A stretch of 64,000 bases of DNA, taken from assembly GCA_963698025.1 (NCBI GenBank), contig OY969112.1, positions 5,445,200-5,509,199 on the forward strand. The letters are read 5' to 3'. Of this stretch, positions 14,654 to 64,000 are shown piece after piece; the stretch's first letter is position 1; each line of letters opens with the position of its first letter. The translations under genes were made by a program, and so were the position numbers. The DNA comes from an uncultured Acidobacteriota bacterium. GTDB lineage: Bacteria > Acidobacteriota > Thermoanaerobaculia > Multivoradales > UBA5704. The notes beneath the pieces are model-generated. The model was given only the letters and a program-made list of their open reading frames with translations, did no database searches and was not told where the DNA came from.

Positions 14654-16350
14654 ATGAAGGAGCCCGCGATAGAGTCGGAGACCGGCGCGGCCACGGTCGT
14701 GGGTCTCCTGCGTGCCCGTGCCGCGGAGCGGCCGGAGCAGGTGGCGTTCACCTTCCTGGCGGACGGCGAGTCCGAAGGGGGGAGCCTCATCTACGCGGAG
14801 CTCGACCGCCGGGCGGCGGCGATCGCGGCGGCTCTGGCGGCCTCGGTCCCGCGGGGGGAGCGGGCGCTGCTGCTCTATCCGCCGGGTCTCGACTTCATCG
14901 CGGCCTTCTTCGGCTGCCTGTACGCGGGGGTGGTGGCGGTCCCCGCCTATCCGCCGCGCCCGAACGACCGTTCGCAGTCGCGCCTGCGGGCCATCGCGCA
15001 CGACGCGACGCCGCGGGCGGCGCTGACCACGGAGGCGATCCTGGCGGGCGCGGTCGAGCCGCGCGGGCTGCTCGCCGTGGCGCCGGAGCTGGCCGGGCTG
15101 CGGTGGCTCCCGACCGACGCCCTGGGGGAGGGGGGGGCCGCCGTCACCTCCGAGCCGGTCCCGGAGTCGCTCGCCTTCCTCCAGTACACGTCGGGGTCGA
15201 CGGCGGCGCCGAAGGGCGTGATGGTGAGCCACGCGAACCTGCTGCACAACGAGCGGATGATCGGGGCGGCGTTCGGGATGGACGAGGAGTCGGTGGTGGT
15301 GGGATGGCTGCCGCTCTACCACGACATGGGCCTGATCGGGAACGTCTTGCAGCCGCTGCACGCCGGGGGGCGCTGCGTGCTGATGTCGCCGGTGGCGTTC
15401 CTGCAGCGTCCGCTGCGCTGGCTGGAGGCGATCAGCCGCTACCGGGGGACGGTGAGCGGGGGTCCGAACTTCGCCTACGAGCTGTGCGTGCGCAAGGCGA
15501 GCCCGGAGGCTCTCGCCGGACTCGATCTGTCGAGCTGGCGGGTGGCCTACAACGGCGCCGAGCCGGTGCGGGCCTCGACGCTGGAGCGCTTCGCGGAGAC
15601 GTTCGCGCCGTGCGGCTTCCGCAAGGAGGCGTTCTACCCCTGCTACGGCCTGGCCGAGGCGACGCTGTTCGTCACCGGTGGCTCGGCGGGGCAGGCGCCG
15701 CGGGTCGACGACCGGCGGGTGAGCTGCGGACGCTCCTGGATGGGGCAGCGGTTGGTGGTGGCCGATCCGGAGACGGGGGCCGAGCTGCCGTCCGGGACGG
15801 AGGGGGAGGTCTGGATCTCGGGTCCGAGCGTGGCGGGCGGCTACTGGGAGAACCCGGAGGGTACGGCGCGCGACTTCAACGCCTTCCTGGCGGCCGGGGA
15901 GGGTCCGTTCCTGCGCACCGGGGACCTCGGGTATCTCACCGGCGGCGAGCTGTACGTGACCGGCCGGTTGAAGGACCTGATCATCCTGCGCGGCCGCAAC
16001 CACTACCCCCAGGACGTGGAGCTGACCGCCGAGCGCGCCCACCCGGACCTGCAACCGGGGGGCGGGGCGGCGTTCTCGGTCGAGACCGGCGGCGAGGAGA
16101 GGCTGGTGATCGTCCACGAGGTGGCGCGGCACCGCAGCGAGGGGATCGCGGCGATCGCCGAGGCGGTGCGGAGCGCGGTGGCGGCGGAGCACGAGGTGCA
16201 GGCGCAGGAGGTGGTGCTGATCCGCCAAGCGGGCCTGCCGAAGACATCGAGCGGCAAGGTGCAGCGCCGTCTCTGCCGCGAGCTCTACCTCAGGGGTGAG
16301 CTGCCGGTGGTGGGACGGAGCGCCCTGGCGGCGGCCGATCCGGCGCCGGA
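14654..16350 (+). other. FAAL (fatty acyl-AMP ligase) loading domain of NRPS gene 1
   Basis: Domain boundaries are approximate. The motifs lie in the first ~570 aa. Confidence 0.8.
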
Positions 16351-62040: not shown

Positions 62041-64000
62041 CGGCGGAGGCGTTCATCCCCGATCCGTTCGGCGGCCCGGGCGAGCGCCTCTACCGCACCG
62101 GCGACCGGGTACGCCGCCGGCCCGACGGCCGCCTCGACTTCCTGGAACGGATCGACGGCCAAGTGAAAATCCGCGGCTTCCGCATCGAGCTGGGGGAGAT
62201 CGAGCGGGTGCTCGAGCGGCATCCCGAGGTGGCGGCGGCGGCGGTGGTGGCGCGCGGGGAGGGGGAGGCCGCCGGGCTTCGGCTCGTCGCCTACGCCGTG
62301 CCGCGCGAGGGGCGGGAAGTCCAGCGGGATGGGGACGAGGATCTCGCCTACGTCGCCGAGTGGCAGACGCTGTACGAGGAGGCCTACGGGCGGGAGGACG
62401 CGGCCGGAGCGCCGGACCCGACGTTCGACATCAGCGGCTGGAACAGCACCTACACCGGCGAGCCGATCCCGGCCGAGCAGATGCGTGAGTGGATGGAGGG
62501 CACGGTCGAGCGGCTCCTGGCGCTGCGCCCCCGGCGGGTGCTGGAGGTGGGCTGCGGCACCGGCCTGCTGCTCTTCCAGGTGGCGCCGTCGACCGCGCTC
62601 TACCTCGGCATCGACTTCTCGTCGCGCGCCCTGGGGGGCATCCGGCGCCAGCTCGAGGTCCCCGGCCGGGAGCTGCCGCAGGTCGAGCTGCGGCAGGCCA
62701 TGGCCCACGAAGTGTTCGGGATTGCGCCGGAGCCGCTCGACCTCGTCGTGCTCAACTCCGTCGTCCAGTATTTTCCAGGCGTCGACTACCTGGTGAAGGT
62801 CCTGGAAGGGGCGGTTGCGGCGGTCGCCCCTGGTGGGGCGGTCTTCATGGGGGACGTGCGGAGCCTGCCGCTGCTGCCGGCGCTCCACGCCTCGGTCGAG
62901 CTGTTCCAGGCGCCGGGGGAGATGCCCGTCGCCGAGCTGCGGCGGCGGATCGGCCGTCGGCTGGCGGACGAGGAGGAGCTGGCGGTCGATCCGCGGCTCT
63001 TCTTCGCTCTCGCCCGCCGGCTTCCCGCGATCCGCCGGGTCGAGATCCTGCTCAAGCGGAGTCGCCACGCCAACGAGCTGACCCGTTTCCGTTACGACGT
63101 GGTCCTCCACACCGGTGAGGGGGGTGCGGGAGCGGAGCTCGTCTCCTGCGCCTGGAAGTCCCTCGCGGAGCTGGAGCGGCGGCTGACGGGGGAGGCTCCC
63201 GCGGCGCTCGCCGTCTCCGGTATCCCCAATGCCCGCCTCGCCGGTGAGGCGGTGGCCCTGGAGCTGCTCGCCGGCGCCAGACCTGGGACGGAGAGCGTGG
63301 AGACACTGCGGGCCGAGGTCGAGCGGCGGGCCGGTGCAAGCGGGGCGGTGGAGCCCGAGGAGCTCTGGACTCTCGCGGACCGCCTGGGTTACGACGCCGA
63401 CCTGACCTGGTCCGCGGCGGGGGGCGTGGACGGCCGTTTCGACGCCGTCCTGCGGCGGCGCGGAGCAGGCATTCCGGCCGGGTCGGCGATCGCTCCCGTC
63501 AGCGGCGAAGAGCCGCCGTGGAGCGCCTACGCCAACGAGCCGTTGCGCGCTGTCAGGGAGCGGCGCCTGCCGCCGGAGCTGCGGCGTTTCCTGGAGGCCG
63601 AGCTGCCGGAGTCCATGATCCCCGCCACCTTCGTCCTCCTCGACGCGCTGCCGTTGACGCCCAACGGCAAGGTGGACCGGGCGGCGCTCCCCGCGCCGGA
63701 GCGGGCGGCGGCCGCGGGCGAGTGGGTCGCTCCGGCCACGCCGCTGGAAGACCTGCTCGCCGGGGTCGTCGCCGAGGTGCTCGGCCTCGAACGGGCAGGC
63801 ATGCGGGACAACTTCTTCGCCCTTGGCGGGCACTCGCTGCTCGCCACCCAGCTCGTCTCGCGCCTGACCCAGGAGCACGGCATCCAGGTGACGCTGCAGA
63901 TGATCTTCGACGCCGCGAACCTCGGGGAGCTGGCCGACCGCATCGTCGAGGCCGGGCTCGCGAGCGCCGACGCCGGGCTCCTCGACGAGGCGTTGCGCGA
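61884..64000 (+). CDS. Continuation of the last NRPS module in the shifted frame: rest of the A domain with embedded methyltransferase, T domain and start of the docking tail; open to the window end
   Basis: Frame 0 reads [20 protein letters not shown] ... [24 protein letters not shown] ... [13 protein letters not shown] ... [12 protein letters not shown] ... [13 protein letters not shown] ... LPESMIP ... NGKVDR ... [18 protein letters not shown] ... [19 protein letters not shown] with no stop up to 64000. It is not in the ORF track because it has no stop. Confidence 0.85.
62300..63560 (+). other. Methyltransferase domain embedded in the A domain of module 11; paralog of the module-7 MT
   Basis: About 75% amino-acid and ~85-88% nucleotide identity to 45400-47140 over spot-checked stretches. 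Confidence 0.75.

Follow-up and report, generated by a model that had tools for sequence, protein, structure and literature searches.

In synthetases of the PvdL type and the MycA/iturin type, an N-terminal acyl-AMP ligase, a carrier domain and a condensation (C) domain are joined in one polypeptide. The MycA starter also contains an aminotransferase and a ketosynthase (KS), and the acyl chain put on by PvdL is removed by PvdQ. To our knowledge, essentially no nonribosomal peptides have been characterised from Acidobacteriota. The acidobacterial lineage UBA5704/Multivoradales is exceptionally rich in biosynthetic gene clusters (BGCs), and no product for the lineage is reported there (PMC12818350, PMC9723581); given this richness (PMC12818350), any product would be the first chemical data point for the lineage. 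Here, we analysed a stretch of 64,000 nt (the window) from an uncultured soil bacterium of this lineage (contig OY969112.1 of assembly GCA_963698025.1, positions 5,445,200 to 5,509,199), which carries a large hybrid cluster of nonribosomal peptide synthetase (NRPS) and polyketide synthase (PKS) genes.

We consider it likely, from the sequence, that the window contains the first ~50 kb of a single lipopeptide assembly line, colinear and of hybrid NRPS-PKS type, from a Thermoanaerobaculia (Acidobacteriota) bacterium. Each element is of a known kind, namely PvdL/MycA-like lipoinitiation, the LCL/DCL/epimerisation (E) logic, TioS-like interrupted adenylation (A) domains, a PKS module within an NRPS line, a ketoreductase-fold domain without activity (KR0) and a docked C domain acting in trans; the cluster is real but unsurprising to a specialist. 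The only feature that might hide new enzymology is the cassette formed by the KR0 domain, a free-standing C domain (hereafter Cst) and the second C domain that follows it. This conserved dead ketoreductase (KR) and the extra C domain bear on how PKS and NRPS modules couple.

Domain organization of the assembly line

Domains were identified by Pfam scans of consecutive pieces of the window and by searches seeded with the window's own domains. From position 14654 to the window end, the plus strand is nearly all NRPS/PKS coding sequence, and the coordinates below refer to this strand unless stated otherwise. The results showed a fatty-acid-AMP ligase (FAAL) with an acyl carrier protein (ACP), five NRPS modules, a PKS module of KS, acyltransferase (AT), KR and carrier, then Cst and six further NRPS modules. 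Module 2 has a tandem carrier (T), two later modules contain E domains that are each followed by a DCL-type C domain, and two A domains are interrupted by a methyltransferase (MT). This order reproduces exactly the one read from motifs in the first-pass annotation. The domain matches had E-values of 1e-10 to 1e-150, which excludes chance for the domain map. Pfam recovered eleven C-A-T sets, as in modular type I NRPSs; the HHxxxD motif was present in 14 of 14 C and E domains, and core motifs A4 to A6 of the A domains aligned with GrsA.

The first gene, g1 (14654-33091), is one intact open reading frame (ORF) of 6145 aa that encodes FAAL-ACP-(C1-A1-T1)-(C2-A2-T2a-T2b)-(C3-A3-T3)-(C4-A4-T4)-(C5-A5-T5). 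It is followed by the PKS gene (33112-37893; KS-AT-KR0-carrier), which gives a protein of 1594 aa only after three sites have each been repaired by one G, and by the gene for Cst (37890-39362). The fourth gene, g3 (39359-47140), encodes an N-terminal head, (C6-A6-T6)-(C7-A7(MT)-T7) and an acidic tail. The last, g4 (47137-64000), runs off the window and encodes a head and (C8-A8-T8-E8)-(C9-A9-T9-E9)-(C10-A10-T10)-(C11-A11(MT)-T11); g3 and g4 were both mapped by Pfam and seed searches. Neighbouring genes share 4-nt overlaps (GTGA, ATGA, TTGA), as expected for a translationally coupled operon. The gene layout given in the first-pass annotation needs amending in one respect: although the domain order stands, the PKS gene and g4 are not single ORFs in the sequence as given, since four frameshifts interrupt them.

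A thioesterase (TE) seed search and Pfam found no TE on the plus strand of the window, in agreement with the first-pass annotation. The sequence 3' of T11 (63735-63944, located by seed search) resembles the beginning of the acidic tail of g3. The end of g4 would therefore probably lie ~25 codons beyond the window, with one or more further genes after it. In a relative with an 80%-identical PKS, the line ends in T-TE. No orthologue of the 3' end came up when homologues of module 11 were sought and metagenome loci were searched with the g4 tail; the best matches were 62-64% identical and belonged to g3-like bimodular proteins. A six-frame scan of the window detected no MbtH-like motif.

Lipoinitiation by a fused FAAL-ACP

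The FAAL domain (14654-16309; Pfam AMP-binding and AMP-dom_DIP2-like), the ACP of the loading didomain (16409-16633; PP-binding, E 1e-10) and C1 (16709-18040; seed searches and the motif HHIVADF) are encoded in this order. The best NCBIfam families for the first domain were fatty-acid-AMP ligases, with NF004509 at E 7e-132, a match that lies below the curated full-protein cut-offs. Moreover, the first 640 aa of g1 aligned to positions 9-638 of the PvdL-type model PRK05691. These findings support the predicted N-acyl starter. Like the PvdL-type and MycA/iturin-type starters, the start of g1 combines ligase, carrier and C domain, and unlike that of MycA it has neither aminotransferase nor KS. 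It also differs from PvdL, as C1 falls on the LCL position of the PvdL model and not on the first C domain of that model. C1 is 38-50% identical to the LCL-type domains of the window, including the gene-initial C domains.

The PKS module and its catalytically dead ketoreductase

We then asked whether the PKS gene has the residues of an extension module. The KS (33163-34308) retains its catalytic Cys (TACST) and both His residues (EGHGS, NIGHL), the AT (34698-35687) is of the malonyl type by its motifs GYSLGE and HAFH, and the carrier (37546-37785) has the motif GGHSL typical of a peptidyl carrier protein (PCP). The acidic tail after this carrier reaches position 37890.

The KR-fold domain (36107-37425), in contrast, is catalytically dead by its sequence. 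Alignment to the KR structures of MlnE and PksJ showed TDGVHGGG in place of the NADPH motif TGGAGxLG, and replacement of the catalytic Lys by Ala, Tyr by Ile and Asn by Gly; neither the Lys-Ser-Tyr(-Asn) set nor the TGGxGxxG motif of an active short-chain dehydrogenase/reductase ketoreductase is present. Homologues of ~1500-1600 aa show these substitutions too; their Tyr position, for example, is occupied by Ile, Leu, Val, Arg, Met or Thr. This dead-KR family makes up about 86 of the best 120 homologue clusters and retains the KS Cys (TACST), GYSxGE, HAFH and the PCP-like GGHSL, while longer PKSs among the same homologues retain Tyr and Asn. The first-pass annotation had placed a KR in the ketide extension after residue 5. 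The KR fold stood up in our analysis, but its function did not, and the ketide is therefore predicted to stay β-keto rather than to become β-hydroxy.

The KR0 domains of modular PKSs likewise have the KR fold (Pfam KR and Beta-ketacyl_N) without the catalytic residues and the NADPH motif. Two points set the present domain apart from the usual KR0. The dead KR is conserved through a whole family of single-module KS-AT-KR0-PCP proteins inside NRPS lines, and the malonyl-type AT leaves no α-substituent for a KR0 domain to epimerise.

Epimerization, methylation and substrate codes

E8 (50413-51756) and E9 (54934-56331) matched the E-specific model TIGR01720 (E 1e-34 and 3e-44), and E8 also has a 10-residue motif. 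The two domains are 61% identical to each other and 22-27% identical to the C domains. C9 (51808-53133) and C10 (56377-57708) form their own clade, with 58% mutual identity and about 30% identity to the other, LCL-type, C domains; they carry the 10-residue motif HHLLxDGWCF and align to the C domain that follows an E domain in the PvdL-type model. Taken together, the E domains and the C9/C10 clade make the previously proposed D-residues at positions 8 and 9 a well-supported prediction.

The MT insertions proposed for A7 and A11 were also recovered. In A7, Pfam Methyltransf_12/25/11 matches (45533-46252) lie between the A core and AMP-binding_C, and the whole A7(MT) aligned end to end with the interrupted A domain of TioS (A4a-M4-A4b, PDB 5wmm; query 3-891 against chain 62-918, E 8.5e-174). 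The MT of A11 (62442-63164; Pfam and seed search) is homologous to that of A7. TioS likewise has the MT in the C-terminal part of its A domain, while its host pathway and substrate differ. Both insertions are predicted to be of the backbone N-methylation type.

The Stachelhaus positions read DAFWLGGTF or DALWLGGTF in A2, A7 and A9, DVQFMAHAA in A4 and DVWHFGEVD in A3. Going by codes described in the literature, we tentatively take these to specify Val, Pro (or a Pro-like residue) and a Ser-like residue, respectively. A5 has the code DLYSLAFVW and GGATE in place of YGPTE, for which we tentatively assume a small or Cys-like residue on the same basis. The codes of A6 (DPEDIGAIS) and A10 (DAESVGAIS) both contain acidic pocket residues, which suggests that these domains load basic-type residues. 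Confident predictions are confined to Val (modules 2, 7 and 9) and Pro (module 4), and A1, A8 and A11 received no assignment from their codes. The nearest solved A domains were uninformative as a guide for A5 and A8, as both matched the A domain of LgrA module 2.

The tandem carriers T2a and T2b of module 2 (22793-23326) were seen as two PP-binding stretches. Carriers are multiplied elsewhere in the family, with T-T-T or T-T-T-T arrangements in downstream modules of two related loci (L010 and L011).

The free-standing C domain between the PKS and NRPS modules

Cst matched Pfam Condensation with E 5e-78. It has an N-terminal head helix and the motif HHIATDWITF, and is without an A domain, a T domain or a tail. 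Judged by sequence, it is an ordinary LCL-like C domain, with the C domains of Txo2 and Txo1 as its best PDB matches. Together with C6 and C8 it forms a clade of gene-initial C domains (50-70% identity), each preceded by a head with a similar 11-residue motif. Heads of this kind are present on Cst, g3 and g4, and acidic tails containing L(S/P)PEE on the PKS, g3 and g4, the last being cut by the window end. The matched docking elements described earlier for the gene boundaries were therefore found at some of them; g1 ends in a basic tail, the PKS starts without a head of this kind, and Cst lacks a tail. The heads of g3 and g4 (39359-39430 and 47137-47210) are nearly identical over a 19-residue segment, as are their tails (47020-47140 and 63945-64000), so docking alone may not enforce the order of these subunits, and skipping or iteration is possible.

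To see how far Cst is conserved, we compared it among metagenome-assembled genomes (MAGs). Orthologues occur in 11 MAG loci with 61-95% identity and keep HH(I/T)xTDWITF. Their ratios of nonsynonymous to synonymous substitution (dN/dS) are 0.19-0.37, like those of the KS, indicating that Cst is under purifying selection. The cassette A-T / KS-AT-KR0-T / Cst / head-Cn-A-T is retained in 13 of 13 relatives examined. In two homologues (P0039 and P0090), the PKS carrier and its acidic tail are fused directly to Cst, the head helix of Cst is deleted and the next gene retains its own head. Therefore, Cst works with the PKS carrier, and the tail and head act as a docking pair that a covalent link can replace.

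The described system closest to Cst is Kj12C of rhabdopeptide synthesis. Both are free-standing C domains with an N-terminal docking element only, and each has a docking partner that also serves elongation subunits with similar heads. Kj12C ends its pathway, whereas Cst stands mid-cluster after a PKS module and always has more modules after it. The elements themselves also differ, the head of Cst being a segment of ~25 aa with the 11-residue motif and the N-terminal docking domain of the rhabdopeptide system an α/β fold of ~65 aa.

Reading-frame breaks at G runs

As given, the PKS gene is spread over four segments rather than one intact frame: the KS is in frame 1 and the AT in frame 3, while the KR begins in frame 2 for its N-terminal half and continues, with the carrier, in frame 1. 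The changes fall at a G6 run at 34695-34700 (frame 1 to frame 3; 1 nt short), a G6 run at 35988-35993 (frame 3 to frame 2; in effect 1 nt short) and a G7 run at 36826-36832 (frame 2 to frame 1; 1 nt short). A fourth break divides g4 between two frames, where A11 moves from frame 1 to frame 3 at a G7 run (61878-61884). All four are thus 1-nt deficits (modulo 3) at a G6 or G7 run. One G added per site yields the 1594-aa PKS and an uninterrupted g4 with the normal spacing between motifs A5 and A6 in A11. The repaired PKS has no stop codon in the restored frame and has lost no catalytic motif relative to its relatives, and it is 89% identical to an intact metagenomic homologue (P0001) over 100% of its length.

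To compare reading frames, we aligned 13-20 kb to four relatives (L002, L004, L006 and L007). The results showed that net non-triplet differences in coding DNA occur only at the three PKS sites, that the window is one base (modulo 3) short at each, and that all four relatives are in frame there. At the second site, the window is net 4 nt shorter than its three closest relatives and net 2 nt longer than L007, and both differences correspond to a 1-nt deficit in the window. We therefore attribute the four breaks, with good confidence, to homopolymer under-calling in the source assembly and not to biology, since four events of the same type occurred at homopolymers without other decay. They need to be fixed before the sequence is used for automated BGC annotation, synthetic prediction or heterologous expression.

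On the coding strand, G runs of at least 6 nt far outnumber C runs (for example 15130-15137, 20059-20066, 46492-46499 and 58821-58828), and GC content at third codon positions (GC3) is ~0.95. Both features give rise to dozens of long spurious ORFs in all frames and to many sites prone to homopolymer error. The long-read MAG loci L005 and L014 (MFD isolates) are full of frame breaks, L005 having 69 non-triplet indels in 21 kb against L004, and the public protein calls of both loci are fragmented. L005 was rejected as a model of the errors in the window, as its 69 indels lie mostly off homopolymers.

Proposed route

The route below is drawn from the domain order. The FAAL would adenylate a fatty acid and load it onto the fused ACP, and C1 would N-acylate residue 1. 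Modules 1-5 would then build an acyl-pentapeptide of X, Val, a Ser-like residue, Pro and a small or Cys-like residue. The KS-AT-KR0-carrier protein would add one malonyl unit, giving a γ-amino-β-ketoacyl thioester, rather than a β-hydroxy one, because the KR is dead. The acidic tail of the PKS carrier may recruit both Cst and the head of g3; Cst would act on the PKS-bound intermediate and C6 would pass the chain on. Six residues are predicted from modules 6-11, namely one with a basic side chain, N-Me-Val, D-X, D-Val, a second of basic type and a hydrophobic one with an N-methyl group. Beyond the window, one or more genes would follow, with T-TE as the end of the line. If expressed, the line should yield an N-acylated peptide with 11 or more residues. 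Some of these would be N-methylated and some in the D-configuration, an internal β-keto-γ-amino acid would be included, and basic side chains are probable.

Alternative interpretations

Several findings weigh against this interpretation. C1 is no closer to the first, acyl-accepting C domain of the PvdL model than to an LCL domain; most A-domain codes have no match among confidently assignable codes; two C domains address one carrier, which is outside standard colinearity; and the known precedent for a docked stand-alone C domain, Kj12C, is a terminator (PMC6195595). Three of the four frameshifts lie within 2.2 kb of one gene, while ~70 other runs of at least 6 identical bases in the window are in frame. 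Because of this concentration, real inactivation of the PKS has to be considered: the PKS (three lesions) and A11 (one lesion) would have been recently inactivated by slippage at G runs, leaving a line that is dead or truncated after module 5. Consistent with such inactivation, three of the four lesions fall in a single 4.8-kb gene, the ~14.6 kb of flanking genes have complete Pfam domain matches and no frame break, and the noisy long-read relative L005 shows a different error pattern, mostly off homopolymers. Nevertheless, all four events are of one kind, at G runs of at least 6 nt, elsewhere no net non-triplet indel was seen, and the repaired protein keeps its frame, motifs and full-length identity. 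Four independent recent inactivations without other decay are less parsimonious than systematic under-calling of homopolymers, and we regard them as unlikely. Still less probable, in our view, is a fatty acyl group that serves as a transient handle, in the manner of the PvdL/PvdQ maturation of pyoverdine, so that the mature product is not a lipopeptide. The alignment of the FAAL-ACP start to the PvdL-type model fits such a scheme, as does a 985-aa Penicil_amidase gene (Ntn acylase family) beside the FAAL gene and its divergent neighbour in one related locus (L052), but no acylase was found in the 14.6 kb upstream in the window or in the 5.2 kb upstream of the FAAL gene of another (L053), no siderophore-type receptor or transport genes were seen, and fused FAAL-ACP-C starts are very common in the lineage. 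The assembly of a lipopeptide, with the frame breaks as under-called G runs, is our preferred interpretation.

Within that interpretation, the likeliest role of Cst is on-pathway processing or hand-over, to which we give about even odds. We give rather low probability to shunt release, in which Cst, like Kj12C, would compete with the g3 head for the PKS tail and release the acyl-pentapeptidyl-ketide onto an amine, water or an internal nucleophile, so that the locus would give a short and a long product series. A role as an adaptor or of another kind is given the same low probability. Release by Cst would suit a domain with a head similar to those of g3 and g4 and with no tail, A or T domain of its own, and the fused forms end in T-C, which resembles an architecture for release; Kj12C, with only its N-terminal docking domain, indeed terminates chains in competition with elongation subunits (PMC6195595). 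In 13 of 13 relatives, however, more head-Cn-A-T genes follow Cst, with the PKS carrier as their only possible donor, and a terminator acting in cis in the fused variants would starve these conserved downstream modules. The constant presence of downstream modules, notably in the fused forms, thus argues against pure termination, and the ordinary LCL-like sequence of Cst points the same way. That KS-AT-KR0-PCP, a docked or fused Cst and a second head-bearing C domain together form an undescribed PKS-to-NRPS hand-over or branching device of this BGC-rich Thermoanaerobaculia lineage is a speculative proposal, and we doubt it more than we believe it. In such a device, two C domains would serve one carrier with a γ-amino-β-keto thioester, and Cst might, for example, perform non-canonical chemistry on the β-keto intermediate or set the ratio of short to long products.

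Related loci and flanking genes

For the PKS, the FAAL-ACP start, module 11 and Cst alike, the nearest homologues are unnamed proteins of MAGs labelled Thermoanaerobaculia or Acidobacteriota. Ca. Angelobacter, with a GC content of 55% and a place in subdivision 1, was rejected as the host lineage. No characterised pathway was found among the homologues, which agrees with the absence of a named counterpart in the first-pass annotation, and literature searches gave only statements on the BGC richness of the UBA5704/Multivoradales lineage (PMC12818350, PMC9723581). Nevertheless, the architecture is not unique, as near-orthologous colinear BGCs are present in public Thermoanaerobaculia MAGs. The intact single-ORF homologues of the repaired PKS have 89%, 80% and lower identity to it. 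L006 (JBDSHF010000003.1) is colinear with window positions 28799-48968 at 89.4% nucleotide identity, and L004 (DATHEF010000054.1), L005 (CAVXIG010000035.1) and L002 (JGI Ga0556617_0001183) are 88-89% identical up to C6. Over 13-20 kb at 88-89%, these four loci share with the window module 4 (Pro-like), module 5 (DLYxLAFVW), KS-AT-KR0-T, Cst and head-Cn-A-T. In L006, g3 is shared as well, down to the A codes and the MT, whereas L002, L004 and L005 contain after Cst an extra bimodular gene that is absent from the window. In other relatives, E-DCL modules are swapped in or extra carrier domains are present. The family varies by insertion or deletion of whole modules at the boundaries of head and C domain, and recombination there appears to drive its diversification. 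The cluster is an uncharacterised, probably functional orphan of this family, of which public Thermoanaerobaculia MAGs contain many members.

The extra gene lies at about 12800-17900 in L002, L004 and L005, between Cst and the g3 orthologue. It encodes C-A-T-C-A-T (2147 aa), and its first C domain is a near copy of C6.

Divergent from g1, a gene of 238 aa on the minus strand (13552-14268) encodes a Haem_oxygenas_2 protein (Pfam PF14518, E 7e-22) of the heme-oxygenase-like di-iron (HDO) type; a PDB search with it gave only matches of E ~2e-3. The same 238-aa gene stands directly upstream of the FAAL gene in L052 (8898-9614) and L053 (4174-4890), whose other flanks differ. Because it is kept beside the FAAL gene despite these differing flanks, it probably belongs to the cluster, and its product is probably a tailoring or precursor enzyme. 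On the 2.2-Mb contig of L052, the acylase gene next to it (5755-8712, minus strand) recalls PvdQ.

The rest of the upstream flank consists of housekeeping genes by Pfam, encoding an amino-acid permease, a PAS-GGDEF-EAL protein, a FIST protein, methylmalonyl-CoA mutase, an HhH protein, a class II ribonucleotide reductase and a carboxylesterase. GC content rises from 68% in the flank to 74% in the cluster. Horizontal transfer was rejected as an explanation of this step, which we ascribe to amino-acid composition and intergenic DNA. Flank and cluster genes have the same range of GC3 (0.93-0.97), and the cluster therefore looks native.

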